NCBI GenBank assembly: GCA_964535655.1
Contig: CAZHTP010000003.1
Location: 1,186 to 65,185 of the forward strand
Source: an uncultured Gammaproteobacteria bacterium
GTDB lineage: Bacteria > Patescibacteriota > Microgenomatia > JALYQM01
Direction of reading: 5' to 3'
DNA length: 64,000 bases
Shown: in pieces, positions 13,983 to 33,792 of the stretch
Position numbering within the stretch: the first letter of the stretch is position 1
Layout: the number at the start of each line of letters is the position of its first letter
The notes under the pieces: model-generated
Databases searched by the model: none
Told to the model about the DNA's origin: nothing
Seen by the model: only the letters and a program-made list of their open reading frames with translations
Translations under genes and position numbers: made by a program

Positions 13983-13998
13983 TTATGGTGGTCGTAGC
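13983..13998 (+). repeat. Duplicate of the tRNA-His 5' end (ATGGTGGTCGTAGC), 107 bp upstream of the intact tRNA
   Basis: Exact 14-15-nt match to 14091-14105. Embedded in a hairpin-rich segment. Confidence 0.4.
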
Positions 13999-14092
13999 CT
14001 GAGGCAGTATCAACTGCCGAAGGTCCCGTGAGTACCACGAACGGGATCAATGGGTGAAAACCGTTGCTAAAGTGTGTTAGTTAGTCAAATAT

Positions 14093-14167
14093 GGTGGTCG
14101 TAGCTCAATGGTAGAGCAGCAGTTTGTGGTACTGCTGGTTGCGGGTTCGAGTCCCGTCGATCACCCA
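14093..14167 (+). tRNA. tRNA-His (anticodon GTG) with genomically encoded G-1
   Basis: Manual fold: 7-bp acceptor plus extra G-1:C73 pair, D-arm GCTC/GAGC, anticodon stem GCAGT/ACTGC with loop TTGTGGT, T-arm GCGGG-TTCGAGT-CCCGT. Confidence 0.8.
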
Positions 14168-14316
14168 TCCATTGTTATATTATTATGATATCCTTTTCTC
14201 GATACTCCTGACTGGACGTTCGAACCTTTTTAGGAAATATATTTTGCTATTACTCTAAATTCTGTATGAATTTGATCTTTTTCGGGAGCATAAAGGACCG
14301 CAGCAAGATCACTATC
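14163..14316 (+). repeat. 154-bp perfect direct repeat, copy 1 (starts in the last 5 nt of tRNA-His)
   Basis: Identical to 25893..26046 base for base. Confidence 0.9.
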
Positions 14317-14364: not shown

Positions 14365-16953
14365 TTATATTTCTATTTCGATAGGTATTTGTTGTTGTAC
14401 CTGAACTTGATTTTCTACTTCTATTCTGATTTGATCGTATATTTCGACCTCAGCATCTAATATTTCAAAGCTCACTATAAGTGTATATTCTGCTGGATAT
14501 TTTCCTGCTTTATCCCAACCTTCACGACCTCGTACGGCAATGCAAAAACCATCCGTCAGTTCGTAAGCTTTAATAACCGCCCAATCTTTTTGATTCACTC
14601 CCATAGTTCTTTTTAGGTTTCTAGTCTGTCCAGTATTTTCTTTATCTCCTATTACCCATTTAATCGAATGTCCATTTCGATCTTCATGGCCATCTTCTGA
14701 ATATTTAACACATTTTAGAAATTCTTCTGTACTTTCTCCAATATTACTACTAACCCAATCCACCCTATTTGATAAATACTTTTTGGGATTCTTTCTTGTT
14801 CTTCTTGGTTTAGCTTTATATGCAACTGTCACTTCAACCAGTATGTTGTATTCGTTACCTGCTCTTCTTATCTCTTCTGGTATTGGAATTTTGTAAACGT
14901 GCAGGTCTTTATTTAGTATTCTTATATTGCCCCTGCTATAAAGTGTGACACGACTATCGCTACTATAAAGTGCTCTGTCTAAAGAAGGGACACCATATCC
15001 TATTTTTCGTAGTACTGCCTGATACTGCGACTTATCAATATTTTGCGCCCAGTGAGGCCAGCGAGCAGAGTGTATTAATAATGCACGATACATCAAAGCG
15101 GATTCTTCAGGGTATTGACCTTCAATCTTTCCTAATATATGAGAAACTCTAGGGGTACTAATTGATGTTCCGATGAAGTCTCTTGAAGTTAATGGACCTG
15201 GTGGTGAGGACCTAACGCTTTCTAAACTAAGCTCATTGAGTTGTTGTAATGTTATTGGCTGTGCGTAGTTTACAGCATAACTTCCACCTATTTCTACAAC
15301 ATCTGGTTTGATCACTCCCCAAATTCCTGGACCTGATCTAGAAAATGGAGATGGGTCCCATTTACCGCCAAGAGATTTTAAGTTTTCATTTTGGAAATCT
15401 GCTAGACATATTGCTCCTACTGTAACTCCCATAAAAGCTTGTCCGGGATTTGCAGCTCTCGCTGCATCTTCCAATAAATATTCTGGGTAATTTTTTCCAT
15501 TACGGAGGTAGTTTAATATGCCCGGATTTAATGCCTGCTCTGAGAAAGAACTAATATTGCCGATGCTTTGAACGAACACTATATCATTGTCGTATGATAA
15601 TGAATCCATGCAAGCTGCCCACACAGACATTCTGCTTATTTTACACGCTATAGAGCTAGATATTGAATGATTAAAGATGCGGGTTCTTTGCTCAGTGAAT
15701 TTGTAGTATTTATCAACAATGTTGATTAATAATAGCGCTGGCTGGATAGTTTTTGGTATTACTCCATCTTTATTTAATACTCTTGCATTTTCTAACCAAA
15801 AGGGACTTTGAAAAATTCCATTTTTCGGTATTTCGTTATAGAATTGGATTGCCCCAGCGATTCTAGTTCCATGTCCACCATTTTCAATTTCGTCGCCGAC
15901 ACCATTACCATCTGGCAAAAAATTATAAGAAGCTTCCCTGACAATGGATTCTTTTAAGAGGACGTGCTCTTCATTTATTCCACTATCGATTACGCAGATT
16001 CTTGGTGCGTTTGCTCGTGGAGGTAAAACTGTTAATCCATTTTCGTATAGATTATTGATCTCATTATGATCGTTAATAATCACAATCTCTTCCGCTTCAG
16101 ATATCTCAAAAATATACGGGTAGTTTGCAGCGATATCTTTTAGTCCTTTCCCTGATATTTCAACACGGATGGAGAAACTATCATAAAACTCTACAGCGTT
16201 ATAGGTTTGGTTATCAACGATTTGTAGTATGTTTCCTTTATAGAAGTTCACCAACTGTTGCAATTGGTCTTCACGTTCGCTTTTTAGCTTGTCGTACTCT
16301 TGATATGCAAACGTAAGTTTTTCTTCCCATTTTTCTTTTTTTGCCTGAAATTCTTCTTCCGTTTCACTTTTAGTCTTTTCAATTTTGTTTTGAGGAGGAA
16401 TTGTTGTACCTGTACACTCTATAGAAATATCAACTGTGCAAGCAGTGTCATCTTTGATATGTATCCATTTTTTGTACAACTCTTCGGAAAGTATATGTTG
16501 CAGTTTGTCATGCGGGTTTATATCATATACTTTTGCTACTGACCCACTTTTCTTTTCGTTGTTCTCAAATGCCTTTATGCTCTTAGTTAGCTTGTTTAAC
16601 TCTATATCCTCAGTTGCAACGATTGCAAAACCTTCATCATACTCTGCCACGATTTCAAATCCAAAGGCGGAACGTAAAAACTCTAAATCTACGTCTTCTT
16701 CTATTTGCACAAGAGCTGAGTTTCCCTTTGGAAGTATTCTGCCTACTTCAGTATCACTTCTGTTGAGATTTTCTTCTTTCCAAGTATTACTAAGCATTTG
16801 CAACTTGCCCGTAAGCTCGAACGCATGATCTTTACGATTTTCTAAATTTTGTATTGTCTTTTCGTTTGATTTTCCTTGTGCACGAGGGAAGTATGCTCTA
16901 TCTTTGAGCACCATCTGAATGGGAAGATGATTTAGTTGTCGTTGTGTTGCCAT
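14365..16953 (-). CDS. Subtilisin-like serine protease (peptidase S8) with long N- and C-terminal extensions; ietS-like
   Basis: Catalytic triad motifs 'CVIDSGI' (Asp), 'HGTRIAG' (His), 'GTSISTPRVSHILG' (Ser). 862 aa. Overlaps the upstream AAA gene by 56 nt. Confidence 0.85.
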   Translation of the reverse strand: MATQRQLNHLPIQMVLKDRAYFPRAQGKSNEKTIQNLENRKDHAFELTGKLQMLSNTWKEENLNRSDTEVGRILPKGNSALVQIEEDVDLEFLRSAFGFEIVAEYDEGFAIVATEDIELNKLTKSIKAFENNEKKSGSVAKVYDINPHDKLQHILSEELYKKWIHIKDDTACTVDISIECTGTTIPPQNKIEKTKSETEEEFQAKKEKWEEKLTFAYQEYDKLKSEREDQLQQLVNFYKGNILQIVDNQTYNAVEFYDSFSIRVEISGKGLKDIAANYPYIFEISEAEEIVIINDHNEINNLYENGLTVLPPRANAPRICVIDSGINEEHVLLKESIVREASYNFLPDGNGVGDEIENGGHGTRIAGAIQFYNEIPKNGIFQSPFWLENARVLNKDGVIPKTIQPALLLINIVDKYYKFTEQRTRIFNHSISSSIACKISRMSVWAACMDSLSYDNDIVFVQSIGNISSFSEQALNPGILNYLRNGKNYPEYLLEDAARAANPGQAFMGVTVGAICLADFQNENLKSLGGKWDPSPFSRSGPGIWGVIKPDVVEIGGSYAVNYAQPITLQQLNELSLESVRSSPPGPLTSRDFIGTSISTPRVSHILGKIEGQYPEESALMYRALLIHSARWPHWAQNIDKSQYQAVLRKIGYGVPSLDRALYSSDSRVTLYSRGNIRILNKDLHVYKIPIPEEIRRAGNEYNILVEVTVAYKAKPRRTRKNPKKYLSNRVDWVSSNIGESTEEFLKCVKYSEDGHEDRNGHSIKWVIGDKENTGQTRNLKRTMGVNQKDWAVIKAYELTDGFCIAVRGREGWDKAGKYPAEYTLIVSFEILDAEVEIYDQIRIEVENQVQVQQQIPIEIEI

Positions 16954-17968
16954 TTATTTTTTTTGTACTAGGAGGGGCAATTTCATCCAACGCAATTGTC
17001 AAATGCGTATCGTTCACAGTACTACTCCCATCTAATATAGCCGTCTTTGCTGCATTTTGAGCTACAGATACAACGTCTGCAGCAGATAGCCCTTTTACTT
17101 TTTTAAATAATACGCCCCAATTAATTTTTTTGTTTATATTCAAAGCGGCCAAAGTTGTTTTCAGCAATTGTTCTATTTGTTGTGAGTCGGGTCTTTTGAT
17201 TTCAATTATATCATCAAAACGTCTATATATGGCCTTGTCTAGAGATCCCTCTAAGTTTGTGGTCGCTACAAGTAATCCTGCAGACTCATATTCATCTAAA
17301 AGCATTAGTAGCATATTAACTATCCTTTGTGTTTCTCCAACATCTGAACTACTAGTTCTCGACTTCGCTATAATGTCACATTCATCTAACAATAATACAC
17401 ATGGCGATTTTTGGCTTGCATCGAAAATTGATCTTAAATTTGCTGAAGTTTCACCAAAGTATGAGGAGATTAAACTATCAAATCTAACTTTTAATAGAGG
17501 AAGTCCAACATTCCAAGCTAGTCTCTCAGCTCCCATTGTCTTACCACACCCGGGTGGTCCATAAAGTAATATTTTTTTTCTTGGTTTTAAGTTATGCCTT
17601 GCTAGTCGATCTCTGGCAGCAAATTCTTTTTCTATCCGTTCAAATCTATCTTCAACATCCGATTGCAAGACCATGTAATGTCTTAAAACATGGGCCGGAA
17701 TAAAAGTAGCAAGAGGTTGGTTATTTCTTTGACTTTTAGGAAGTTCGAATAATTTTTTTTCACTTACTTCTGGATTTACATAGTACTTGGTGGTCAACCG
17801 ATTTTGAGCATCAGCAATTATTTTCTCAAGTTGCAAGGATAATTTCTTATGCCCTTTTTTCTTCTCTTCTTCAACGACGGCAGAAGCTATTTTTAATAAA
17901 CTTTCTGAATCGTTTGTCTCAATTGCTCTAAATAGTCTAGTAAGTAATATTGAATTCATATAAGCCAA
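16898..17968 (-). CDS. Classic AAA+ ATPase (CDC48/FtsH-type ATPase domain); ietA-like
   Basis: Walker A 'LLYGPPGCGKTM', Walker B 'VLLLDECD', second region of homology. 356 aa. Translationally coupled to the subtilase. Confidence 0.85.
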   Translation of the reverse strand: MAYMNSILLTRLFRAIETNDSESLLKIASAVVEEEKKKGHKKLSLQLEKIIADAQNRLTTKYYVNPEVSEKKLFELPKSQRNNQPLATFIPAHVLRHYMVLQSDVEDRFERIEKEFAARDRLARHNLKPRKKILLYGPPGCGKTMGAERLAWNVGLPLLKVRFDSLISSYFGETSANLRSIFDASQKSPCVLLLDECDIIAKSRTSSSDVGETQRIVNMLLMLLDEYESAGLLVATTNLEGSLDKAIYRRFDDIIEIKRPDSQQIEQLLKTTLAALNINKKINWGVLFKKVKGLSAADVVSVAQNAAKTAILDGSSTVNDTHLTIALDEIAPPSTKKINGNTTTTKSSSHSDGAQR

Positions 17969-18072: not shown

Positions 18073-18671
18073 TTAATAACTACTAATACGCCACTTAAGG
18101 AAATCCTCATCTATTGTTAGCTTGTATATCTTTTTTTTCTCAAATTCTGCTTTTATGACTGAAACAAAAAATATATATCCTTGCTCTGGACTTCTGCCAA
18201 TTACCCAATAAGTAGAGAAATCACTTCTGTCGTGTACAATCTTTTGAAGCTCTTCATGCTCAAATAAACCAAATTTATCTATAAATATAATTAAATCAAG
18301 ATTTCTATAATATTCTGGTCCTTTTTTTGCTTTTTTATCAATAGCATCAATTACTAGAGAAGTAATGTTTCCCTTAGAAAAAGGTGGTATACCTGTTCAG
18401 TGTCCAAAACTATGTTCTTTTTCTCTCCTGCTGTGCAAGCTAATACACCATCTCCTCCAAATCGGTCTGATCCAATAGTCCACTCGTTATCAGGATCTAA
18501 ATGGCGTGCTACAGTGCAAAGTATAAATAATCCAAGTACTTCACGAGGTAATAAATTTATATTTGCTATTTTTTTACCTTTTACTAGTAGCGCTGAATTT
18601 TTCAAAATTGTTTGAATTATATTTTTAAGGAATAAATTAAGATCTTTGACAAGATAAATTGGTGTATGCAT
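18073..18671 (-). pseudogene. Frameshifted hypothetical gene (105-aa ORF plus about 92-aa Met-less continuation in another frame)
   Basis: ORF 18354..18671 is followed by an open frame 18073..18396 with no Met at all. The frames meet at a T5/A5 run near 18378-18382. Confidence 0.45.
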
Positions 18672-18720
18672 ACAGTTTTAAATCTCTAGCATAACTTGTT
18701 ATCTCATGCATATGCATATT

Positions 18721-18796
18721 GCGGAAAGTGGTTCTTCATTCGAAGTATATGGGTTATAATTGATTCCAGTCAAAACCCAACTATCACTTTGTTGCA
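18721..18796 (+). repeat. Degenerate tRNA-3'-half-like element (about 75% similar to 25828..25900)
   Basis: Shares 'GG..ATGGTTC..CATT.CGA..AT.TGGGTTATAATTG.TTCCAG...AACCCA' with the segment preceding repeat copy 2. Confidence 0.4.
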
Positions 18797-19309
18797 CTAT
18801 TCTTTAGAAAATTTCCCTGGACTAATGGAAACAACTTTTGCTTGAACTTTTGCATTTTTAACCTCGTACTCAATTCTATCTCCAGGCTTCTTTCCTAGTA
18901 ACTTCTCACCAAGAGGTGATTCATAAGAAATCCATGATTTATTAGTTCCTGAGTCGTATTTACCGAGGACTGTATATTCTTCAGGCTCGTCCTCGCCTTG
19001 AAAAAGCACACCTACAGTATTTCCGAGACCTACACGATCGACTTCTTGTCTAGGTTCAATAAAGACTGGATCAGTGACCGATTGTCTTAGATTTAAGACA
19101 AATGCGGCATTAATTTGTGTATCTCTTTTAGCTTGATCATAGGCTGCGTTATCATGCCATTCATGGCTTTCACCTGCAGCATCACCTATGTCTTTGCTAG
19201 ATTGAGCTAAGGCTTGCTCTGCAGACTCTAATTCCCTTAGTAATCTGTTATAAGTTTCTCGCGTCATTAAGTTTAATTTGCGAGGTTGCCTCTCTCGATT
19301 TTCTATCAT
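18797..19309 (-). CDS. GreA/GreB-family transcript cleavage factor-like protein
   Basis: N-terminal coiled-coil plus C-terminal FKBP-like domain ('VGLGNTVGVLFQGEDEPEEYTVLG', 'ISYESPLGEKLLGKKPGDRIEY'). Confidence 0.6.
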   Translation of the reverse strand: MIENRERQPRKLNLMTRETYNRLLRELESAEQALAQSSKDIGDAAGESHEWHDNAAYDQAKRDTQINAAFVLNLRQSVTDPVFIEPRQEVDRVGLGNTVGVLFQGEDEPEEYTVLGKYDSGTNKSWISYESPLGEKLLGKKPGDRIEYEVKNAKVQAKVVSISPGKFSKE

Positions 19310-19311
19310 AC

Positions 19312-19986
19312 TTAATTTGACTTAACAAAATTACATCTTAAAACTACTCTTACGCCTGTATTTTCCTGTTTTACATCTTCAGATAATTCTTCCTCCAAGG
19401 TAAAGTTATTTTGTGCCATAATTTTATAAAATAGTTCTTTAGGGAGCAATGTCATTGGTAACCCCTCTTTAGTGATGTATGAGTACTCTTCTCCTGCGAC
19501 CGCTTCATAGGTAGGATCTAACTCTTTGTTAGTAAAGATATTGAGACATACTATCGCCCCAGTTTTTGTAACCCGAGATAGTTCTTTTAAGGCACTTTCA
19601 TATTGATCCAATGTTGCTGCCTGATGGAGTACACCGGTCGTTACTACAACGTCGAAAAAATTGTCGTTGAAAGGAATATGAAGAATGGTTCCCTCTTTTA
19701 TTCTGTTTTCCATTTCATTAGTAGGAATATAATTTTGAACACGCTTTTTTGTTGCAGCGATCATCGCAGGGTTTATATCACAAGCATATGTCTCGAATCC
19801 CATACTGCATAACATTTCAGTATGTCTTCCACCACCACATCCTAAGTCTAATGCCTTCAGTTCACTGGTATCTTTTACTTGAGATAATCTATTTACTATC
19901 TTAGGATCTGCTGGTTTTGACTCGAAATATTCAACAATTTTATCGTCGTTCCAAAACTTTTTTTCTGACTGGGTAGTATCATTCAT
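19312..19986 (-). CDS. Class I SAM-dependent methyltransferase
   Basis: Motif I 'ALDLGCGGGRHT'. Confidence 0.7.
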   Translation of the reverse strand: MNDTTQSEKKFWNDDKIVEYFESKPADPKIVNRLSQVKDTSELKALDLGCGGGRHTEMLCSMGFETYACDINPAMIAATKKRVQNYIPTNEMENRIKEGTILHIPFNDNFFDVVVTTGVLHQAATLDQYESALKELSRVTKTGAIVCLNIFTNKELDPTYEAVAGEEYSYITKEGLPMTLLPKELFYKIMAQNNFTLEEELSEDVKQENTGVRVVLRCNFVKSN

Positions 19987-19989
19987 ATA

Positions 19990-21087
19990 TTATTGCTCCA
20001 CTATTTCATAACGGCTGTTATGGATTTCTGTTATTAATGTCTTCATATTATTCTCTTTGAATACCCTTTCGCACTCCTCCGGGTTCTTAGTGATGGCAAA
20101 CATTCCAGGACCAACTGAGGACACGGTTAATACGTCTGCAATTCCTTTTTCCTTAAGAATGGCGACTTTATTTGCCAAATCTACCATAGGTGGATAAACA
20201 AAAGAGCAATTCTCGATACTGCCCATATGGTAGCGGTAATCGAAAATTAGATCACCGATTACTTTTAAGTCGCCTTCTTCCATAGCAGGTAAGCACTCAT
20301 GGAATAATCTATATGCTATGGTAGGACCATATTTTTTGCCGCACTCCATAAATTTATGTAGGTTTTTTATCTCTTCGTCCATTAAATATTTTGAATCTGG
20401 ATATGTGAAGTCTTCAGGAATTCCGATAACAACCTTATACTCGTCGCTGATATTCATTGTTTTGACAACCGTATTTTCTCCTGCTATTATTACCAACCCG
20501 CCTTCATACATTCCACAAGCAGCTGATCCACCAATACATTGAACTGGATTTATCAAATTATCGTCTCCGTCAATTTCCTCGCCATGATTCTGCGCCATAT
20601 ATCTTACTAAATATTTATCACTTACGGGCTTACCGTAAAGCTCGTTTATTGCGCATGCTACACCTGCAATAGTTGCGCTACTCGATCCAAGTCCACAATG
20701 CCTCAAATTAACTTTATCCTCAACATTGATGTAAAGTCCGTCTGTGAAGCCTAACGCTTTTCTCATTATTTCAGCTGAATGCCTTATCAATGTGGACCGT
20801 TTTGATGTAGGTGAAATTTCAGTAGAACCTTTTTTGTCTGTTATGTTAACTTTTATTGTTTTAAAAATTTTTACACAGAAATCTATTTGACCTGGGGTAT
20901 ATCTCAAATTATTATTCTCTGCGATCTTACTAGGATCAATCGCCATGGCTTCTAACCGACTCGGATACTTAATTATAATTTTATCTTTCTCTCTTTTGAT
21001 CTTCAAATCTTTTTGTTCAAGGTTGTTAAATACAGTGCCTACGTCAAAAGGAGTAAAGTTTGTTTTTGATGAATTAGTGTCTGACAT
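19990..21087 (-). CDS. GHMP kinase family protein (beta-RFAP synthase/homoserine-kinase-like)
   Basis: GHMP ATP-binding motif 'LRHCGLGSSSATIAGVACA'. 365 aa. Confidence 0.55.
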   Translation of the reverse strand: MSDTNSSKTNFTPFDVGTVFNNLEQKDLKIKREKDKIIIKYPSRLEAMAIDPSKIAENNNLRYTPGQIDFCVKIFKTIKVNITDKKGSTEISPTSKRSTLIRHSAEIMRKALGFTDGLYINVEDKVNLRHCGLGSSSATIAGVACAINELYGKPVSDKYLVRYMAQNHGEEIDGDDNLINPVQCIGGSAACGMYEGGLVIIAGENTVVKTMNISDEYKVVIGIPEDFTYPDSKYLMDEEIKNLHKFMECGKKYGPTIAYRLFHECLPAMEEGDLKVIGDLIFDYRYHMGSIENCSFVYPPMVDLANKVAILKEKGIADVLTVSSVGPGMFAITKNPEECERVFKENNMKTLITEIHNSRYEIVEQ

Positions 21088-21147
21088 TTGTATATCTTAT
21101 GGTGATAATATATAATGCGTTTTATTGTACCATAATGGCGCCATCAT

Positions 21148-21768
21148 ATGATAGTATTAACAGGATATAGAGCTGCTGGAAAAACAACGGTAGGGAATAT
21201 ATTGGATAATAAAGGTTACTGGTTATTCGATGTTGGCCCCTATTGGCGTAGTTTGCGTGATAATGAAGCCCCGCATCTAGATGCTGGGCAGTTTTTTTCA
21301 CTTAAAAGAAGTGAAACTAGAAATATTCACTGGGAAGATGACATGGCTGTGGAACATCTGAAGGCAGAATATGCTGCTGGTCGACTTCTTAGTAAAGATC
21401 TTGTTATCTCCGGCTACCGTAACCCCACTAGTTTAGACTATTTGCTCTCCGCCATAAGACCCCATATTTTTCCGAATAAAAGAATATCTATATGGTATGT
21501 ACATTGCGATTTTCAGACCGCATTAACTAGATATAGAGATAGAGACGGCAATAATATAACTGCAGAACAACTCATTCAACATTATAGATATGAAGATGAA
21601 ATGGGTATAGAAAAGTTACGGAATCAAGCAGACGTATTCCTAGATAATTCATCAGACTTGGATAGGTTAAAAGTTCAAATTGATACTGAACTAAAGAGAT
21701 TACTTGAATTAAATGTGGAAGGCGCTATATTGAGTGAGGGATCTCAAGCATTTAAGGAGCGTGCATAA
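21148..21768 (+). CDS. P-loop NTPase / nucleotide kinase-like protein
   Basis: Walker A 'LTGYRAAGKTTVG' at the N-terminus. 206 aa. Confidence 0.5.
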   Translation: MIVLTGYRAAGKTTVGNILDNKGYWLFDVGPYWRSLRDNEAPHLDAGQFFSLKRSETRNIHWEDDMAVEHLKAEYAAGRLLSKDLVISGYRNPTSLDYLLSAIRPHIFPNKRISIWYVHCDFQTALTRYRDRDGNNITAEQLIQHYRYEDEMGIEKLRNQADVFLDNSSDLDRLKVQIDTELKRLLELNVEGAILSEGSQAFKERA

Positions 21769-22343
21769 GCAGAGTACCATTGAGCAAAATCTTCGTACGC
21801 AATACTGTGTGCCGCAACAGGTACACCTTCGTTATGCAGCTCTGCAATTGATTTGCCGTCAGGTGTTAGACTGATAACTGTATCTGAGTTTTTTCCCCGA
21901 CCTCTTTTCTCAAAAAGTATTTTACCTATAACTTCATCTCTAAAAATCCTATGTCCAGTGGAATCGATGAAACAGATTAAATTTTCAAGAATTATTCTTC
22001 GGTCGGAATGTCCAGACATTAGATTAATAAAGTCTTCAGGGCCTAACCAATCATTCATTTCCCTCATGTAAGGTCCAGGGAATCCTTTTAAAGCGGGAAT
22101 ATTCCAGCCCGAATTATTTACTATCAACCTTCGTTGGACTATGCCATAGGCCTTTTGTGCTTTATCTATTGCGGCTTCTTCTAAGGAGAGTCTTCTTAAT
22201 TCGGGGATATCAATTTGGACTGCTTCGAACTCAATTGCATGAGGTTGAAAATGCTCTTTTGCTTTTAAGATCTTATCTTGATTTCCTGTTATATATAGCA
22301 ATCTGTCACTCATACTACTTGTTCGCTTGTACCCACAAAGCAA
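21744..22343 (-). CDS. Ham1/RdgB (ITPase)-like NTP pyrophosphatase family protein, copy 1
   Basis: 'LYITGNQDKILKAKEH' and 'NIPALKGFPGPYM' resemble the ITPase 'ATGNxxKxxE' and 'ALxGxPGxYS' motifs. The acidic residue before the second motif is replaced (NNSG). Confidence 0.45.
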   Translation of the reverse strand: MLCGYKRTSSMSDRLLYITGNQDKILKAKEHFQPHAIEFEAVQIDIPELRRLSLEEAAIDKAQKAYGIVQRRLIVNNSGWNIPALKGFPGPYMREMNDWLGPEDFINLMSGHSDRRIILENLICFIDSTGHRIFRDEVIGKILFEKRGRGKNSDTVISLTPDGKSIAELHNEGVPVAAHSIAYEDFAQWYSAYARSLNA

Positions 22344-22878
22344 ATTCTTTCCAAAGATTATTTTTAGTATCCCTTTTAATATTCATTTCTCTCATTTGGG
22401 CAATTGTATATTTCTCCGTAACAAATGTAATAATTTTATCCGAAGGTTCACCATTCTCACCGTGTTCTTCCTTTAGTATTTCGCCTTCTTGATCGTCAAC
22501 AAATGTCTTTGTCTTTTTACCATCTATATAAACAAGTAGTTGTCTGAATATAATTCTTCTATCAGTTTTATCTTGCATAAGATTTAAAAAATCCTTAGGC
22601 GTGAACCACTTATTTATGAATTTCATATAAGGACCAGGAAATCCGTTTAACGCTGGTATGATCCATCCGGCGTCATTGATGAAAAGAGGCTTTTTAATTA
22701 TTTCAAAAGCTTTTTGTGCCTTGTCTAATGCGATATCCTCTATAGAATCGGATTGTATTTCATCAACTTTCTCTGACTGTTGCACAAGATCAATGTTATA
22801 TGCTTTGAGCACTTCTTTTGCATGCTCAAATTTTGATTTATTGCCGGTTATGTATAAAAGCGATTGAACATCATCCAT
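22315..22878 (-). CDS. Ham1/RdgB (ITPase)-like NTP pyrophosphatase family protein, copy 2 (tandem paralog)
   Basis: 'LYITGNKSKFEHAKEV', 'IIPALNGFPGPYM'. Overlaps copy 1 by 29 nt. Confidence 0.45.
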   Translation of the reverse strand: MDDVQSLLYITGNKSKFEHAKEVLKAYNIDLVQQSEKVDEIQSDSIEDIALDKAQKAFEIIKKPLFINDAGWIIPALNGFPGPYMKFINKWFTPKDFLNLMQDKTDRRIIFRQLLVYIDGKKTKTFVDDQEGEILKEEHGENGEPSDKIITFVTEKYTIAQMREMNIKRDTKNNLWKEFALWVQANK

Positions 22879-22891
22879 ATATTTTCCCGTT

Positions 22892-24040
22892 TTATTCTTT
22901 CCGTTCTAGAACTCTAAATGATTGATAAAAGGTTTTTGATCTTTCTCTAAGATCCAATAGCATTTTATCATAACTGAATGTGCCATCTGGACGAAGCCCT
23001 CTATTATTTGAACGTATGTGAGTAGAAACTGCACTGTTATGAAAGCTTCTCCATTGCCACATCCCTTTATATACCTTGAATAACTCATCTTTTACTGCTG
23101 CAGTCTGTTCATCATTTGGTTCCTTTAAAAACCGGTCGGCAAGCGAGTCAGGCTGAGTGTGTTCTATCTCCTGTAATAAGGCTCTCTTTGAATTTGGAAG
23201 GTGCGGATAAATCTTGTTATGTAGATGCAGAGCATAATCAGCATCAATTCCGTACAATAACGCATCCGTGAGCGATATATTTATATCAGCAGATTGAGAT
23301 TTGGGAATTAAAGTCGTAGGGTTACCATGTTTATCAATCCATATAGTATCTCCCACTTCAAAAGGACTTGCAAAAATAGCTGTATCTATAAAATAACTAG
23401 GAGCAACCTTACCTCTTACTTCGAGCATTAATCTGGCAATGATTTCCATACTTTGTGCAGCTGTTTGCGCTCTTTCTCTCTGGACTGATTCTCCCCATCT
23501 TTCTTCTCCCAAAAGCCCTTGTATCGCACTTATAGCTTTTCTGAATTCGCGCACAAATTCTCCGTTATAGTAGATAAACCTTCTTTCGTCATCAGTACCT
23601 ACAAACGTTCTGGCGTCTTTCCCCGGTGGATTTAATTCTGTAAATGAATAGTACGTATCCCGTGGCGGGAGTCCAGTGCATTTTCCAAGCACAACAAGTT
23701 GTCTCACAAGTGCTGGCAATTGCTCATTTAAGTTTATACCTTTTACTGCTAATGAGCTTGCAAACATGCCAAGATCTCCAAGCGCTAGAGCAGCTCTATC
23801 TTCTGAATGGGCTGCTACCCCTCCTATAACGTCATCTGAAGGCAATAATTGCATACCCCGTCGTATTAGATCTGTTACGTCTACAGAAGCAGTATTGAAA
23901 ACGTGTAGTTCTTCAACCACGAAATGACTAAATGCTCCTAGAGGATATCGACTCTCATTATTTACAACTTCTGTAGCTCGTTGTTCTGGTAACATTTTAC
24001 CGCCTTTATGCGCTTTGTTGGACTCTGCGCCGTGATACAC
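22892..24040 (-). CDS. Hypothetical protein (tandem paralog A, function unknown)
   Basis: 382 aa. Shares 'PRDT..Y.....NP.G...R.F...D.ERRFI' and other blocks with 24006..25106. Confidence 0.5.
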   Translation of the reverse strand: MYHGAESNKAHKGGKMLPEQRATEVVNNESRYPLGAFSHFVVEELHVFNTASVDVTDLIRRGMQLLPSDDVIGGVAAHSEDRAALALGDLGMFASSLAVKGINLNEQLPALVRQLVVLGKCTGLPPRDTYYSFTELNPPGKDARTFVGTDDERRFIYYNGEFVREFRKAISAIQGLLGEERWGESVQRERAQTAAQSMEIIARLMLEVRGKVAPSYFIDTAIFASPFEVGDTIWIDKHGNPTTLIPKSQSADINISLTDALLYGIDADYALHLHNKIYPHLPNSKRALLQEIEHTQPDSLADRFLKEPNDEQTAAVKDELFKVYKGMWQWRSFHNSAVSTHIRSNNRGLRPDGTFSYDKMLLDLRERSKTFYQSFRVLERKE

Positions 24041-25106
24041 TTGTTAAATCTATAAGCCTTTGTAATATATCTGTTGTATATCCTCCACTGCCCAAGGAAC
24101 CTTCCTGTCTAATTGCCATATTATCATCCGCTACTTTCTTATGAGGAAATCGAAACTTTTGGATTGTATTGAGTAGATTTACTAATGCAGACACGCCAGG
24201 TATAGGTTCTCCTGATGCCGTTCGAGTTGCTCTCAGCTCTTCCTCTACTTTATTCAGAATTGACGCAGATCCTCTTTTACTCTCGGCAATCTGCCGTAAC
24301 TCCGGAGGTAAGTACTGAAGATTATCGTAAAAATAATGAGTATACTCAGGACTATCTATTATTGAGGATCCCCATAACAAATAATCAACGAGAATGACTG
24401 GCATTTGAGCACCCCCAGGACCTACATACTCTTTTCCTCCTATTACAAAAGTTGGAAAATAAGGACGTAATTCATAGGTAAAGACCTGCGGAGTAATTTT
24501 TCTTCGAACTTCAACTATTGAGCCGACCATGTTACTAAATCTTTCTTCCGCTTGCTTTACTTCATACGCGAATTGCTCATCATGGATCGATAAAGTAGAA
24601 GCTCTTACCAATGCTTCGATACTATGTGGCAACTCCTGCATTCCCAATCTAAAACTATCAATAAATATTCTTTCTTCTGGCTGGTCCGTGAAGAGCCTCA
24701 TTCTCGCGCCTTTAGGATTTCTGGGACCATACGTAAAGACTGTATCTCTTGGGACTTCATCTGTGCGCAATCCTAGTTCAATCAATTGATCTTCCAATCC
24801 TGGAACTGTCCTCGGATCTATACCGTGCGTTGCAATCGATCCTGCAAGGAACCCGAGATCGCGTAGGGATGCTCTTGCACTTAATATATCAATGCTTGTT
24901 AGTTGTTTGGACTTTAATACAAATTGAACGGTATTTGCGAATAAAGCTTCTATGTCGGCAGATCTGTTGACATTTGGTAATTTATTGCTCAAAAAATCAT
25001 CCGCTCTAAGTGGATCTAGCGCAGCTACTCTTTGGTCATCTTCTGTACATTTAACGTAGGTGTAAGCTTCTTGTGCTGTGGCCGTTTTAATATCTGGACT
25101 TAACAT
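24006..25106 (-). CDS. Hypothetical protein (tandem paralog B, function unknown)
   Basis: 366 aa. Paralogous to 22892..24040. Motifs 'VGPGGAQMP', 'EGSLGSGGYTTD'. Confidence 0.5.
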   Translation of the reverse strand: MLSPDIKTATAQEAYTYVKCTEDDQRVAALDPLRADDFLSNKLPNVNRSADIEALFANTVQFVLKSKQLTSIDILSARASLRDLGFLAGSIATHGIDPRTVPGLEDQLIELGLRTDEVPRDTVFTYGPRNPKGARMRLFTDQPEERIFIDSFRLGMQELPHSIEALVRASTLSIHDEQFAYEVKQAEERFSNMVGSIVEVRRKITPQVFTYELRPYFPTFVIGGKEYVGPGGAQMPVILVDYLLWGSSIIDSPEYTHYFYDNLQYLPPELRQIAESKRGSASILNKVEEELRATRTASGEPIPGVSALVNLLNTIQKFRFPHKKVADDNMAIRQEGSLGSGGYTTDILQRLIDLTSVSRRRVQQSA

Positions 25107-25182
25107 AATACGCCATTATGGCGCCATTCAAGTATATTACAAGGAGTCCAATTTAGTCAATTAAATATACGGTTGGAGAATA

Positions 25183-25755
25183 CTATGCTTTTTTCATTTC
25201 TATCCATTCCTTAATAATTTTTCTAAGGAATTGAGATTTTGATAGCTCTTGTTTTTTAGATTCAATTTCCAAAAAGTTATTGATTTGTGGAGTAGAAATA
25301 AAATTAAATTTTGCAAATTGTTTACTGCTTATCTTGGTTACTTCACGAGAGAGTATGTCTTCGAGATTCTGGGCGTTATACGAGATAATTTTTATATTAT
25401 CATCCTTATCCATATGAAACGTGAATTGCGATTGTTTTTGAGGATCGGAGATATTTTCATCATAAAGGCAAAGAATAGGTATATGCCAATTTGTGGCTAG
25501 TGTAATTTGTTGTCCTACCCCTATTGAAGGATATGTTATTTCTGCAATTACTAGGTCGCTTTTTTTAATTGATTCTATAGATTTATCGTAAATTTCTTTA
25601 TCGTGGATTTCGCTAGACTCGTACCAATTTAGTGTTTCTTTGTATCCTATCTTTTTTAAGATATTACTAATGTTCTGCAATATCCCACTTTTTTGCCTTG
25701 CTATTGTAGAAGAAGCTGAAATAAAAAAGTTTAAACTGGAAGTATTTGTTTTCAT
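25183..25755 (-). CDS. Hypothetical protein (possible Rossmann-like nucleoside-binding fold)
   Basis: 190 aa. 'VIAEITYPSIGVGQQITLA' is weakly reminiscent of nucleoside 2-deoxyribosyltransferase-like proteins. This is speculative. Confidence 0.35.
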   Translation of the reverse strand: MKTNTSSLNFFISASSTIARQKSGILQNISNILKKIGYKETLNWYESSEIHDKEIYDKSIESIKKSDLVIAEITYPSIGVGQQITLATNWHIPILCLYDENISDPQKQSQFTFHMDKDDNIKIISYNAQNLEDILSREVTKISSKQFAKFNFISTPQINNFLEIESKKQELSKSQFLRKIIKEWIEMKKA

Positions 25756-25827
25756 TGGTGCCTATATTATATCTTAATTCTCATTTTAATATAAAGATAA
25801 GCTTAATTTATGGAGCAAATGAATATT

Positions 25828-25892
25828 GAGGAAAATGGTTCCGCATTTCGAGCATGTGGGTTATAATTGGTTCCAGATACAAATCGTCAAGA
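25828..25892 (+). repeat. Degenerate tRNA-3'-half-like element immediately preceding repeat copy 2
   Basis: 'GGTTCCAG....CGTCAAGAACCCA' parallels the tRNA-His T-arm/acceptor 'GGTTCGAGTCCCGTCGATCACCCA'. Similar to 18721..18796. Confidence 0.4.
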
Positions 25893-26046
25893 ACCCATCC
25901 ATTGTTATATTATTATGATATCCTTTTCTCGATACTCCTGACTGGACGTTCGAACCTTTTTAGGAAATATATTTTGCTATTACTCTAAATTCTGTATGAA
26001 TTTGATCTTTTTCGGGAGCATAAAGGACCGCAGCAAGATCACTATC
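25893..26046 (+). repeat. 154-bp perfect direct repeat, copy 2
   Basis: Identical to 14163..14316. Also encodes the C-terminal 29 codons of the minus-strand ORF 25960..26478. Confidence 0.9.
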
Positions 26047-26478
26047 TTCCAAAATCCCTCTCGTGTCATTTGCGAATGCAGAATATCCTTGATTATCAGG
26101 TTGTACATCATTGTCGACTTCCACGCATAATACAAAAGATTTGAAATCTACTCCTGCATCATCAGGTTTATCAATAGCATCATCTACCCAATAGTCTTCT
26201 CCATATTTACTCGATAGTTCAGCAGCTTTTTCTTCTCCTATTCCTTCACGAACGGCCATTTCAATAGCTTTTCGTGGATCGAACCCTTCGGCAGTTACTC
26301 TGACGGTAACTGGCTTGATACCATTTTCTTGAAGTATCTCTTTTGCTTTATCAAAAACGTGTCTATCATTTGTTGTAACACTAGAACGAGGTTCAGAATA
26401 TATTAAAGCTGTTTCTATACGATTGAATTTTTTGTTAAGCTCAGGTGCTGGAACTGGTTGACCTTCATTATCATTCAT
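25960..26478 (-). CDS. Hypothetical acidic protein
   Basis: 172 aa. Its 3' end lies inside repeat copy 2. Confidence 0.45.
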   Translation of the reverse strand: MNDNEGQPVPAPELNKKFNRIETALIYSEPRSSVTTNDRHVFDKAKEILQENGIKPVTVRVTAEGFDPRKAIEMAVREGIGEEKAAELSSKYGEDYWVDDAIDKPDDAGVDFKSFVLCVEVDNDVQPDNQGYSAFANDTRGILEDSDLAAVLYAPEKDQIHTEFRVIAKYIS

Positions 26479-26561
26479 ATATTTAGAAGTTGCTTATAAT
26501 AATGTTGATTTTATTACTAAATAGGGTAATTGGGAATTAGATAAAGTGTACTATATTCTAT

Positions 26562-27041
26562 TTACTCCTCAATGATGAAATTCTCTTTAGGGATAATATA
26601 CTCAGGCAACGATGCTCGAGAGCCAAGTAAGTAGGCATCTAAGCTTGTTGAATTTCTTCTATGCTCTTCCTCTCGACCAAGCATAACCAAGCCATCCCCA
26701 GCAGATACACCAATATTTGATTCGAGGTTACAGTTTCTGAAAATCTTTACATCAACCAAAGGTCCTGATCCCCATGAATCTATTTTATCGAAAATCCAAA
26801 CATCGGTCATAATGTCTATTGATTGAGCTTCTTTATCATCCGATGCTTCGTCCCAGAGTATAACAATATGATAAGTTCCAACATTCAAAAATGAGATATT
26901 TAACTCATATAATTTATTCAAATGATTCTGAATACTATCCTTATCTGTTCTGGTAAGCACCTTCTCTAAGCCTACGCAAGGATAAACAATAAAGGGCTTC
27001 TCTTTAACATGCGTTGTAAACGGTTTGTAGAATCCAGCCAT
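26562..27041 (-). CDS. Hypothetical protein
   Basis: 159 aa. No recognisable motif. Confidence 0.4.
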   Translation of the reverse strand: MAGFYKPFTTHVKEKPFIVYPCVGLEKVLTRTDKDSIQNHLNKLYELNISFLNVGTYHIVILWDEASDDKEAQSIDIMTDVWIFDKIDSWGSGPLVDVKIFRNCNLESNIGVSAGDGLVMLGREEEHRRNSTSLDAYLLGSRASLPEYIIPKENFIIEE

Positions 27042-27043
27042 AT

Positions 27044-27682
27044 TTAATTCCTTTCCTGGTGCGATTTCCTTGCTATGGTATAAATTACTTTATCACTCCC
27101 CGAATCTGGGTCTAGAGAGGCTGTCTCTAATTGGTATACAACTTGAAAACCTGCAATTTGCAGGAAAGTACTCAACCTCTCTTTTGTAAAGAAATTGAAG
27201 AACATCTTTTCACTAGGCATAAATCCCTCGTCTATAACTCTGTCGGCCTCCCCACTTTGTGCAATTATTTCAAGATAGCCATTAGGTTTTAGTATTCTAT
27301 TGAACCCAATTAATGTTCTTGGAATATCTTCTGATGGAATATGAATTAACGAATATGCAATAAGTAATCCATCAAAATATTCATTCTCAAAACCGATATC
27401 TCTCATATCACGCTTATAAAACTTGGTCTCAGGAGTCATTTTCTCAGCAATTTTAAGCATCTCATCTGAGTAATCAGTACCGATTACATCAAAGTTCTTA
27501 TTCAACATATATTTTGTGAACTGACCAGGACCGCTTCCAACATCAAGTATTTTTGACTGAGGGGCAAGCTTTTCTAAAAACTTATCGATATATGGTGTAT
27601 CCGTAAGATCTGTGAAATACTGCTCTGTATATATCTTGGCAATTTTTTCATATGTATTAATTGCAATGTTATTTTTATCCAT
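27044..27682 (-). CDS. Class I SAM-dependent methyltransferase
   Basis: Motif I 'ILDVGSGPGQFT'. 212 aa. Confidence 0.7.
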   Translation of the reverse strand: MDKNNIAINTYEKIAKIYTEQYFTDLTDTPYIDKFLEKLAPQSKILDVGSGPGQFTKYMLNKNFDVIGTDYSDEMLKIAEKMTPETKFYKRDMRDIGFENEYFDGLLIAYSLIHIPSEDIPRTLIGFNRILKPNGYLEIIAQSGEADRVIDEGFMPSEKMFFNFFTKERLSTFLQIAGFQVVYQLETASLDPDSGSDKVIYTIARKSHQERN

Positions 27683-27896
27683 ATTAACTTATCTGCATTA
27701 TACTATTATGTGTAAGTTGGGAAAGGATGTTAGTTGAAATTCAACAAATGAGGTTCGAGTTGAGTCCAGCCACTGCCCCCAATCCTCCTAAACATATTCC
27801 TTTGTTTGATATAATATCGTCACGATTAAAATCGCATTATTTGATTTAGATGGTGTTATCATCGCTCCTTGCACGCGTTGGTAATACATTAATTTT

Positions 27897-28496
27897 ATGT
27901 CCGCAAATATAATTCCTACAGATTCTCGGTATACTCCCCTCACCCAACAGCGTTGGTGTTGTGTACCGACATGTATCCAAATAGTCATGTTGCGACATTC
28001 GATTCCTCTCGTTTCAGCAGAACTAATCGGTTATCATATGGGATTAGTTGTTCCCAAAGATGAGCTGGTTTATTTCTGGAAAGGTAGAACCGGTGAAATG
28101 CCCCCTGCAGGGTACGGAACTCAGGCAGGTAAAGCGAAATATGGACCCAATGCAGTTTTTAAAAAACTTACTATTCCGCTTAAAATGAATTGGTCTTTAA
28201 TTAATAAATTCCCTACTATAAATTCGTTCTATGAATACTTAAAGAAATGCTCGTCTACCGATGCTGATGTATTAGTTTGCTATGACTGGGGAACTTTGTT
28301 TGATTCTGATTATCATGGAGGTCATGTTTGTGTCCTAGATATAGTGGATATTTCTAAAGGCGAAGTGCGGATTATTGACCCTGAGTATAAAGCATCAAAA
28401 TGGAAAGTTGTCTCAATTAATAAATTATATGAAGCAATGCTTTTTCATGGCAAAGAAAAAAGTGGTGGATTTTGGGAAATTTCGCTAAAAAGTTAA
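27897..28496 (+). CDS. Putative papain-like cysteine peptidase (C39-like)
   Basis: Candidate catalytic Cys in 'CCVPTCIQIVM' and His in 'YHGGHVCVLD', spaced about 100 aa apart. Confidence 0.35.
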   Translation: MSANIIPTDSRYTPLTQQRWCCVPTCIQIVMLRHSIPLVSAELIGYHMGLVVPKDELVYFWKGRTGEMPPAGYGTQAGKAKYGPNAVFKKLTIPLKMNWSLINKFPTINSFYEYLKKCSSTDADVLVCYDWGTLFDSDYHGGHVCVLDIVDISKGEVRIIDPEYKASKWKVVSINKLYEAMLFHGKEKSGGFWEISLKS

Positions 28497-28948
28497 TATA
28501 GTCTAGACATTCTCACTCCTTCCAGTATGCCTGATTTGAAGTAGTCTGAATCGTTACTTGGTGTAATTCTCAACCAGTCATATCCACTATGTTCGTCGCT
28601 AATAGTAATCTCTCCACCTCGATATTCAGCCATAAAGAAAACGTAAAATATATGAATATCCTTGCCATAAGGATTTTGTTTAATTGTATTTGGGACGTTG
28701 TGGCGCCCAATAGCGATTGGTGCGGACTGCATGCTGAACTGGATATTACCTAGTTCTTCTTGTACTTCTCGTTTTAATAATTCCTCGTATGGAGTATTAA
28801 ATTCGTCTTCGTTAATACGCCCACCCGGCAGATCATAATATCCGGCATAAGTACCTTGCGGATGCCCTTTAAGAGCAAGTATCTCACCTGCAGTGTTTTT
28901 TAATAGTAGCTTGAGTGAAATTTGATAAAAATCTATAGGAGTTGCCAT
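28493..28948 (-). CDS. NUDIX hydrolase
   Basis: Nudix box 'GGRINEDEFNTPYEELLKREVQEELG'. Confidence 0.75.
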   Translation of the reverse strand: MATPIDFYQISLKLLLKNTAGEILALKGHPQGTYAGYYDLPGGRINEDEFNTPYEELLKREVQEELGNIQFSMQSAPIAIGRHNVPNTIKQNPYGKDIHIFYVFFMAEYRGGEITISDEHSGYDWLRITPSNDSDYFKSGILEGVRMSRLY

Positions 28949-28962
28949 AGTGGATTAACTTG

Positions 28963-29388
28963 TTAGAGTATGTAATGACTAATTTTTTCCATATTATTAT
29001 CTAGGATAATATCTTTAATTTTTTGTGGCCGGATATCAAGATTTCCTATTTCTTCTTTTGTCACTTCAATTAATCCAAACTCTTCAGCAATCTTATCAAT
29101 TTTAGGTGCTAAATAGACAAATGTTATTTCTTGTATGTTAGCTTGGCCGTTATTGTAGAAATTTTCTATTACTGAAATTAATTTAAAAGCTGAAATAGGT
29201 AATCCCGTTTCCTCAAGCATTTCTCTTTTTGCCGCTTCCGTTGAACTTTCATTTAGCTTCATTCTGCCACCAATAAAAAAGTAATAACCGTTCTTATGCT
29301 TCTGAATAAGGAATCCCTTATCTGTTTCCATAATTATAGTTACTCTAATATTTAGCGTGGTGCCGTCTAGCGGTATAGTTAAATCCAT
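28963..29388 (-). CDS. NUDIX hydrolase
   Basis: Nudix box 'GGRMKLNESSTEAAKREMLEETG'. Confidence 0.75.
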   Translation of the reverse strand: MDLTIPLDGTTLNIRVTIIMETDKGFLIQKHKNGYYFFIGGRMKLNESSTEAAKREMLEETGLPISAFKLISVIENFYNNGQANIQEITFVYLAPKIDKIAEEFGLIEVTKEEIGNLDIRPQKIKDIILDNNMEKISHYIL

Positions 29389-29406
29389 GGAGTGATTGTA
29401 TCAAAA

Positions 29407-29757
29407 TTACCTAATTAGAATGTGTTTAAAATATTGTTCCTGGAAATGAACTCCCTTTTCAATATCTTCATCTGAGATATTTGATTGTGAATCTGGCACA
29501 ACTATTAACTTATCATCATTGTCATCAAGCCGGTGAAGTATCGCAATACACGTTCCAGTAAATTCATCTACTGATTCATTAACTCCTAAAACATAGGCAT
29601 CCAGCTCTTCCCCATCCGCAGATTGAGTGTTTTCTATATACCCGTAATTCACCGGATAAATATATCCGTGCTTTGGATGTTTGCTGCCCTGCGGTCTATC
29701 AATTTTTACGGTTACTATTTGGGAGATATATTTTCGGTTGTTATCTAAATCAGACAT
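29407..29757 (-). CDS. Short inorganic-pyrophosphatase-like protein (family I PPase fold fragment/minimal form)
   Basis: 'YPVNYGYIENTQSADGEELDAYVL' matches the PPase 'YPxNYGxIxxTxxxDGDPxDVLV' core. Only 116 aa. Confidence 0.5.
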   Translation of the reverse strand: MSDLDNNRKYISQIVTVKIDRPQGSKHPKHGYIYPVNYGYIENTQSADGEELDAYVLGVNESVDEFTGTCIAILHRLDDNDDKLIVVPDSQSNISDEDIEKGVHFQEQYFKHILIR

Positions 29758-29943
29758 ACTTTGTCATTTCCTAACTCACGATCTTAAGTAACCTTAAGTA
29801 TTATTTTACCATCCTGTTTAGTCGGACAGAAACTCCGCACTGGCACTAGACCCAAAAACTATGAAAAATTAGGGATGGGGTAGAAAAAATCAGTTTGGAT
29901 AAAAGAAGTACGAACAAGATCCAGCCACTGACCCCAAGTGGAT

Positions 29944-29969
29944 ACCGTTCAAAAACGGTCACTTTTTTT
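29944..29969 (+). terminator. Rho-independent terminator-like hairpin on the plus strand
   Basis: ACCGTT-caaa-AACGGT followed by CACTTTTTTT. No plus-strand CDS precedes it. Confidence 0.45.
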
Positions 29970-30322
29970 CTTAAAATTGTCTAAAAATTCTCTTATGGGT
30001 AGAGGATTGTTCGAGTGATGTTGTTCCATTTAAGTGTTTAAATTTACCTCGACAATCTGTAAACGGCATGGTTCTTCTTTTAAGAAAATAGCCATTTAAC
30101 CAGAGGTCAGCGTGCTCAAATGTGACAGGTACCTGGTAACTCGCCCACTTCCTGTCATTGCTCCACTATATGGCTCAATAGCCGACGGACTATTGTGGGT
30201 CTCAACTTTTCCGCAGATTGTTTGTCCGTCATAAAATCTAATTACTCCTTAATTATCTACAAATTAGGTTTGAATTTTATTTGTGATTTACATCACCTTA
30301 TCTCGATTCAATATTAGATATA

Positions 30323-30394
30323 ATGAGCTATTATATGAACCGCATTTCGTATGTCACAACAAACGGAAGTACCTGCTTTTGTACTACGCACTGA
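30323..30394 (+). CDS. Candidate 23-aa small peptide ORF (MSYYMNRISYVTTNGSTCFCTTH), possible RiPP precursor
   Basis: Cys/Thr-rich C-terminus, immediately at the 5' edge of the SPASM radical SAM gene. Speculative: no clear RBS, and it overlaps the annotated rSAM start in another frame. Confidence 0.15.
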   Translation: MSYYMNRISYVTTNGSTCFCTTH

Positions 30395-31712: not shown

Positions 31713-31724
31713 TTGTAGGTTAAG

Positions 31725-32975: not shown

Positions 32976-33792
32976 GATACATTTCGTATAATTCCGAATC
33001 TTCTTGCGTAGCTTCTTGTTGTTTGATTCTTTTATAGAAAAAACTTGCCCCAATCCAAGCACGTGCAAGCATTCCGGTTAAAATGGAGGAGGTGTTTAGT
33101 GGCTCTTGCCAATATCTTTGCAATTGCTGCAGATCAAACTGCTCCTCGGGCAAGTACAAATAGAAACACGACATAAATAAACAAGCAGCTTGGAAATCCG
33201 GTGGTGCGTATATAACGGCTTCGGCATCTACGAAAAATGCCTGGTTATTGTCAATTAAGATATTCCCTCTGTGCAGGTCATAATGTGTCAGTACAAGGTC
33301 TGAGGCGGACAAATACTGGTTCGTGTAAAGATAGTCACCAATTTGCGATAAATACTCATCTTCGATCACTCGTTCCTGACAATTTTTTATCAAATCGTGT
33401 AGCGTTTTACCTGAATGTGGCCTACTATTTTTAGCACTTTTTTTAAACTCTTTTACGACTGTGAAAATGGCTTGTGTCTGCGGATCACTAAGGGTGCCGT
33501 AACAATGCTTTCCTTGAAAGTAGGTCAGTATCTGTATGTATCTATTTTCACTACAACGTATAGTGCCTAATAACCGAGGTAATATATCTGGAGCGATATT
33601 TTTCAAGACATTTTTCTGGTGTTCTATCTCCCCTGAGGTTCGTTGCTTTAAATCTTTTATAACTAGTGTTTTACCAAAAATTGTTACGAAATAAACATCA
33701 GATGCTTTTGCTACTTGAGACTTTTCTATAGCAAAGAACTTTCTCTGCTTGTTAGCGTGCGGTTCTTTTTTGTATCTCATGGTCCAGCCCAT
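32929..33792 (-). CDS. Aminoglycoside-phosphotransferase/choline-kinase-like protein kinase
   Basis: Brenner motif 'HYDLHRGNILID' and 'FVDAE'. 287 aa. Confidence 0.55.
   Translation of the reverse strand: MGWTMRYKKEPHANKQRKFFAIEKSQVAKASDVYFVTIFGKTLVIKDLKQRTSGEIEHQKNVLKNIAPDILPRLLGTIRCSENRYIQILTYFQGKHCYGTLSDPQTQAIFTVVKEFKKSAKNSRPHSGKTLHDLIKNCQERVIEDEYLSQIGDYLYTNQYLSASDLVLTHYDLHRGNILIDNNQAFFVDAEAVIYAPPDFQAACLFMSCFYLYLPEEQFDLQQLQRYWQEPLNTSSILTGMLARAWIGASFFYKRIKQQEATQEDSELYEMYLKKISYIQQQILQHT

Follow-up and report, generated by a model that had tools for sequence, protein, structure and literature searches.

The ietAS gene pair was first described on a Ti plasmid of Agrobacterium as a toxin-antitoxin system for plasmid stability, and is the founding member of its family (Yamamoto et al. 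2009, as cited in PMC8562856; PMC13069673). In this pair the toxin is IetS and its antitoxin IetA, defence needs the activity of the protease, and mutants of ietA could not be constructed (PMC13069673). An AAA/subtilisin pair of Mycoplasma shows the same toxin/antitoxin behaviour (PMC8562856), and the IetAS of Bacillus cereus protects via abortive infection and is toxic on co-expression of the SPbeta yosG product (10.1101/2022.08.27.505566). How the system acts against phages 'remains unknown' (PMC13069673), as an original prediction on the locus described here, made from the sequence alone, had also said. That locus is a pair of overlapping genes for an AAA+ ATPase and an S8 (subtilisin-like) protease, lying in a 64,000-nucleotide stretch (the window) of contig CAZHTP010000003.1 (assembly GCA_964535655.1), whose host was placed in a Bacteroidota lineage that is poorly sampled and has no close relatives among sequenced genomes. 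We conclude that the pair is probably a functional-looking two-gene IetAS module, i.e. a cytoplasmic anti-phage system of the toxin-antitoxin/abortive-infection type. From our own analysis come the family membership by profile, the architecture of the locus, the intactness of the catalytic residues, the cytoplasmic location, the obligate pairing and the mobility. The assignment of the protease as toxin and the ATPase as antitoxin, the abortive-infection phenotype and the trigger by a phage protein are taken from the literature.

The two genes were placed as follows.

16898-17959, minus strand: ietA-like gene (AAA+ ATPase), 353 amino acids (aa) from an ATG, or 356 aa if started from the TTG at 17968
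14365-16953, minus strand: ietS-like gene (S8 protease), 862 aa, ATG start

They are co-directional, with the ATPase first, and the 3' end of ietA overlaps ietS by 56 nucleotides (nt). The two overlapping open reading frames (ORFs) of the original prediction (862 aa, and 356 aa from the TTG) were present in the ORF table as claimed. The more probable start of the ATPase is the ATG, which lies three codons inside the TTG frame; the gene calls of P0121, NCBI and Logan all start at this ATG (17959). For the protease, one other gene call starts at Met14 (P0001, 849 aa), and the NCBI record (P0241) has 862 aa. Since a 'F-x-H-L-P' motif conserved in the family lies at aa 7-11 of IetS, upstream of Met14, the 862-aa protein with the 56-nt overlap is the better call.

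We observed that both proteins were best matched by IetAS profiles in PADLOC, so that the proposed ietAS relationship held when it was checked. The top match of the ATPase was the IetA model PDLC02196 (E 7.1e-79, aa 9-330 against positions 7-321 of 374 in the profile), and three further IetA models matched at E 1.6e-70 to 1.7e-38. For the protease, the top match was the IetS model PDLC02198 (E 7.7e-58, over aa 296-856); the IetS models PDLC02197 and PDLC04233 extended back to aa ~190, and the generic 'subtilase' model reached an E of only 3.3e-4. The best NCBIfam matches were IteA_antiphage (NF042959) and IteS_antiphage (NF042956), and PHROGs gave full-length family matches for both proteins (phrog_3757 and phrog_3964). 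Pfam recognized only the generic AAA (ATPase aa 133-258) and Peptidase_S8 (protease) domains; a further entry, PF27160, is annotated on many of the homologues. Judged by these profiles, the pair truly belongs to the IetAS family, although it is divergent, and we hold the assignment to this family and to its functional class (abortive infection/toxin-antitoxin) with high confidence.

When we compared the locus with the described systems, the gene order was the same as in the Ti-plasmid pair (ATPase, then S8 protease). The Ti-plasmid IetA is 34% identical to the window IetA over the full length, and the Ti-plasmid IetS aligns with aa 252-850 of the window IetS, i.e. with the second plait and the catalytic and C-terminal domains described below. 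The Ti-plasmid pair is plasmid-borne with a role in plasmid stability, whereas the window pair is chromosomal and next to a tRNA gene. Gene order, catalytic residues and the architecture of IetS along its whole length are also shared with the PADLOC IetAS type (Gao_Iet) and with a large full-length subfamily found in the B. cereus group, cyanobacteria and Planctomycetota, among others. An IetS of the B. cereus group, encoded beside restriction-modification (RM) and GmrSD genes, is 37% identical to the window IetS over aa 1-859. The window pair differs from this subfamily in its Bacteroidota host and in its unusual 56-nt overlap. The tested system of B. cereus m1293 is a different locus from our L178/L179. 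The Mycoplasma TA132/133 pair (AAA-ATPase/subtilisin-like), likened here by its description, follows the same logic of ATPase antitoxin and S8 toxin, and the Mycoplasma modules are likewise reported to have flanking direct repeats (PMC8562856). The three-gene ietHAS has in addition a gene for an SNF2 helicase (PMC13069673), in contrast to the window locus, which has none and where the upstream neighbour is an unrelated frameshifted ORF.

The family to which the pair belongs is large. Hundreds of S8 homologues of ~850 aa are 37-43% identical to the window IetS from end to end, and their hosts include Cyanobacteria, Planctomycetota, Bacillota and Pseudomonadota, along with many metagenomes. Apart from its own records, no IetS relative above 43% identity was found in the searched databases. 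The relatives of IetA are 50-62% identical, and more than 5,000 IetA-like proteins were found with E <= 1e-10. We then assembled 94 family loci from metagenomes, viral contigs, plasmids and genomes. An IetA homologue lies directly upstream on the same strand in all of the loci with enough upstream sequence (88/88). The usual gap between the two genes is 2-20 nt, with an overlap in only 3 of 90 loci; the unusual 56-nt overlap here stems from a tail of IetA that is longer and of low complexity. A metagenomic protein of 1316 aa (P0108) is a natural single-chain fusion of an IetA-type AAA domain and an IetS-type protease, which supports a physical coupling of the two.

The pair is mobile across the family. 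It was found between housekeeping genes (L002), beside an integrase and an RM system resembling type I (L004), beside an integrase on a conjugative Burkholderia plasmid (L086) and, in the B. cereus group, beside genes for RM and GmrSD (L178). Relatives also occur on 10 IMG/VR contigs. This recurrence in unrelated contexts, plasmids and viral contigs included, is not that of a core gene, in line with the original prediction.

The predicted active sites of both proteins are intact, as had been claimed, and lie at columns that do not vary in the family. In IetA, aa 1-~100 are helical and family-specific, and are followed by an AAA module of the classical clade (aa ~125-330). The Walker A motif is GPPGCGKT (134-141), with G134, G137, G139 and K140 invariant in the family, as are D192/E193 of Walker B, N235 of sensor 1 and the arginine fingers R246/R247. 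The pore loop reads 'YFG' (167-169); its pattern (aromatic-hydrophobic-glycine) is conserved, and G169 is invariant. Among solved structures, the D2 module of p97/Cdc48 and the module of NSF come nearest (E ~1e-53), and NCBIfam also puts IetA near the proteasome-activating nucleotidases and FtsH. All of these are protein-threading unfoldases.

IetS was divided into three parts with the help of an AlphaFold model.

16039-16953, minus strand: N-terminal region, aa 1-305 (AlphaFold model)
14974-16038, minus strand: S8 catalytic domain, aa ~306-660, with D323, H361, N466 and S597
14365-14973, minus strand: C-terminal beta-sandwich, aa 661-862, and the stop codon, with R717-R718-T719-R720 and Q788-K789-D790-W791

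The model was built on an alignment of 47 sequences (predicted local distance difference test 86.7, predicted template modelling score 0.90). The catalytic residues D323 (in DSG), H361 (in HGT) and S597 (in GTS), together with N466 of the oxyanion hole, are invariant in the family. In the predicted N-terminal region, a long helix (aa 31-68) is followed by two ferredoxin-like plaits, the first (aa ~76-148) with the order beta-alpha-beta-beta-alpha-beta and the second (aa ~170-288) with a very long first helix (199-237), and then by a disordered linker (aa 289-305). When aa 1-312 were modelled separately, this layout was reproduced. The N-terminal coiled-coil of about 300 aa that had been proposed was thus not borne out, the prediction being mixed alpha/beta with only two long helices (40-66 and 199-237). 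The C-terminal extension, proposed as 250 aa, is ~200 aa (661-862) and forms a conserved beta-sandwich, in which the motifs RRTR (717-720) and QKDW (788-791) are invariant across the family.

Neither the sequence search nor the fold search gave a solved structure of an IetS relative. The mature-only subtilases of the fold search align with the full-length IetS model over 235-264 residues, and from these alignment lengths we infer that the second plait may pack on the catalytic domain at the position of a propeptide. The ferredoxin-like fold is a common one. In its predicted fold and in the order of its parts (plait, S8 core, beta-sandwich), IetS is like the pro-subtilisins whose propeptide serves as intramolecular chaperone and inhibitor (pro-subtilisin E, Tk-SP, PCSK9) and like the KP-43-type subtilases, which have a beta domain at the C-terminus. 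The model suggests that IetS is built like an unprocessed intracellular pro-subtilisin, with two propeptide-like plaits, the S8 core and the beta-sandwich.

Since many S8 proteases of Bacteroidota are secreted, and genes for glycoside hydrolases lie upstream of the tRNA gene, the subtilase might have been a secreted protease of nutritional or degradative function that happens to stand beside an unrelated AAA ATPase. A hydropathy scan of both proteins showed no signal peptide, lipobox or transmembrane segment; the maximum KD19 was 1.18 for IetS and 1.31 for IetA, and both N-termini are hydrophilic. This agrees with the earlier expectation of a protease that is not exported, and suggests that IetS and IetA are cytoplasmic. 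Pfam finds no domain besides Peptidase_S8 in the protein, the IetS profiles match well past the catalytic domain, and throughout the family the protease is obligately paired with the ATPase, with fusion proteins known as well. The lack of an export signal along with the conserved pairing refutes the secreted protease, to which we give practically no chance.

The IetAS module that we favour could work as follows. In the uninfected cell, IetA would spend ATP on keeping IetS inactive, either through remodelling or unfolding of the protease or by keeping its prodomain-like inhibitor in position. IetS would be freed by a phage-encoded trigger, or by the loss or blockage of IetA that infection induces. 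The freed protease would then cleave essential proteins of the cell, of the phage or of both, and the infection would be aborted. Beyond the literature and the analysis, we infer here how IetS is restrained by IetA, what the prodomain-like plaits do and which proteins are cleaved. We propose the specific form of restraint, an unfoldase that holds a latent pro-subtilase, only tentatively, as somewhat less probable than its negation. The more detailed version, in which a propeptide-like plait blocks the active site of IetS and the pore loops of the IetA hexamer set the switch between the latent and the lethal state, is rather doubtful.

The surroundings of the pair bear on its role at this site.

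14094-14166, plus strand: tRNA-His (GTG), called by ARAGORN (Rfam tRNA 65.6 bits)
14163-14316, no strand: left copy of a 154-nt direct repeat (blastn 100% over 154 nt)
25893-26046, no strand: right copy of the repeat, overlapping the 3' end of an intact ORF (25960-26478, minus strand)

As had been noted earlier, the tRNA-His gene is adjacent to the pair: it is convergent with ietS and 198 nt from its stop codon. The bounding by direct repeats was likewise confirmed, since the two perfect 154-nt copies bracket a segment of 11.6 kb. The left copy consists of the last 4 nt of tRNA-His (the only part of the tRNA gene within the repeat), a spacer of 63 nt and a second copy of the final 29 codons of the ORF at 25960-26478, and is therefore a gene fragment. 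This orphan duplicate (14230-14316, minus strand) shows that the 3' end of the gene was duplicated when the 11.6-kb segment arose. A single-crossover (Campbell-type) insertion would leave such a pattern, as would a rearrangement associated with duplication. The Logan contigs (SRR8893623) tile this same arrangement only, and one of them stops 30 nt inside the left repeat, as expected at a repeat boundary.

A search for the empty site in genome contigs, with the flanking trehalase as anchor, found only relatives of at most 48% identity; the exact 26-nt repeat pattern gave 0 matches in metagenome contigs, and an exact-protein look-up of ORF172 gave no match. Degenerate 3' halves of tRNA-His (beside the right repeat and at ~18.7 kb; MAFFT) were also considered as a sign of tandem accretion, and were rejected because their scores equalled the mean of shuffled sequences.

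Some further observations concern the tRNA gene. The 110 nt directly upstream of it (13984-14093, plus strand) share their first 15 nt with the tRNA region (TATGGTGGTCGTAGC); the sequence then differs and is predicted to fold into two G+C-rich hairpins (-32.8 kcal/mol, z = -2.3 against shuffles). This element had no Rfam match and no ARAGORN call, and may represent either the remnant of a tRNA or a leader element. Among the family loci, a tRNA gene was present somewhere within the fetched locus (flanks up to 5-10 kb) in 8 of 95. On two related metagenome contigs (L088 and L089), IetAS is found directly downstream of 15 tRNA genes arranged in an array, one of which is a tRNA-His.

The pair stands at the edge of a segment that recombination between the two repeats could remove, which raises the question of whether it acts here mainly as an addiction module, stabilizing the segment by post-segregational killing, rather than in phage defence. 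Plasmid stability was the original role of ietAS on the Ti plasmid (cited in PMC13069673 and PMC8562856), and no other defence genes are adjacent to the window pair. However, the two roles can coexist, family members defend by abortive infection (10.1101/2022.08.27.505566), and relatives stand beside RM/GmrSD systems and on prophage-like contigs. We therefore regard addiction as the main role as improbable.

Several points weigh against a functional anti-phage IetAS of the tested kind. The equivalog cut-offs of NCBIfam were not reached (110.7 against 900 bits for IteS, 232.1 against 510 bits for IteA), and on this sequence evidence the pair is a divergent subfamily and no equivalog of the curated NCBIfam exemplars. 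Both proteins diverge from the Ti-plasmid pair; its IetS is only 24% identical, and the first ~250 aa are unaligned (the figure for IetA was given above). The best PADLOC IetS model covers the N-terminal ~250 aa poorly as well, so that the sensor or regulatory specificity may differ from that of the tested systems. Restraint by unfolding is one of several models that fit the genetics. In the ORFs of at least 90 aa between 9.6 and 39.5 kb, no recombinase or integrase domain was detected, and PADLOC found no recognizable defence genes among the neighbours, only weak methyltransferase and kinase matches. The G+C content is 0.33-0.41 inside the segment and 0.37-0.41 outside it, i.e. there is no compositional shift. 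The description of the site as typical of defence islands thus survives in part: the segment is repeat-bounded and next to a tRNA gene, but an integrase, defence neighbours and a G+C anomaly were not found, and a defence island as such was not confirmed.

Within the segment, the IetAS pair is adjoined by a frameshifted gene of ~200 aa, and then by genes resembling those of nucleotide and secondary metabolism, which continue past the right repeat.

18079-18671, minus strand: frameshifted gene, of which 'ORF105' (18354-18671) is the 5' half, with the switch of frame near 18390

The homologues of this gene (205-220 aa, an uncharacterized family) align in another frame down to ~18079, and it is either a pseudogene or the result of a sequencing frameshift. 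ORF105 was also evaluated as a possible third component of the system and was rejected, since it had no Pfam, PADLOC or PHROG match and no homologue in the 94 family loci. It is no paralogue of ORF172 or of the gene resembling a nucleoside deoxyribosyltransferase (NDT-like).

The long cluster that follows (18797-35032) is mostly on the minus strand. It contains genes for a GreA-like factor, two S-adenosylmethionine (SAM) methyltransferases, a GHMP-kinase-like protein, an AAA_18/CoaE-like kinase, two Ham1/ITPase proteins, two PrnB-like proteins, two NUDIX proteins and a pyrophosphatase-like ORF. The NDT-like gene (a weak match), a radical SAM/SPASM gene, a radical SAM gene, a gene for an APH-like kinase and one for a short tRNA ligase of the ProRS type (426 aa; TIGR00409 361.9 bits against a cut-off of 306.7) are also present. 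This could be a cluster for a nucleoside-type natural product or for nucleotide modification. One could imagine the protease as a maturation enzyme for this biosynthetic-looking cluster (e.g. the leader peptidase of a radical-SAM/SPASM peptide), with the ATPase as its chaperone; this idea is disfavoured, and we rejected it as highly improbable.

A 63-nt element occurs in two copies (18708-18769 and 25815-25876; 82.5% identity, blastn E 1.4e-7). The first copy is just upstream of the frameshifted gene and holds the region's best match to a sigma-70-like promoter; the second lies shortly upstream of the NDT-like gene and at a distance of 16 nt from the right copy of the 154-nt repeat. A scan for sigma-70 promoters and terminators gave nothing above chance, the sigma-70 consensus not being apt for Bacteroidota.

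IetAS is widespread and has been validated experimentally as an abortive-infection system, for which the molecular mechanism is still unknown (PMC13069673). The locus described here has the standard IetAS architecture, now in a lineage of Bacteroidota of which no near relatives have been sequenced; it adds a divergent member to a known and very large family and leaves the general picture unchanged. What the analysis adds is a structural reading at the level of the family, with propeptide-like plaits, a C-terminal beta-sandwich carrying RRTR and QKDW, and a partner of the unfoldase type with intact pore loops. This reading narrows the 'unknown' mechanism to a few tests with point mutants. If the proposed restraint is true, IetAS would be a case of ATP-driven zymogen control in immunity, where a protease inhibited by its prodomain is gated by an unfoldase, and the window pair, for which the model is confident, could then serve as a template in tests of how IetAS works.

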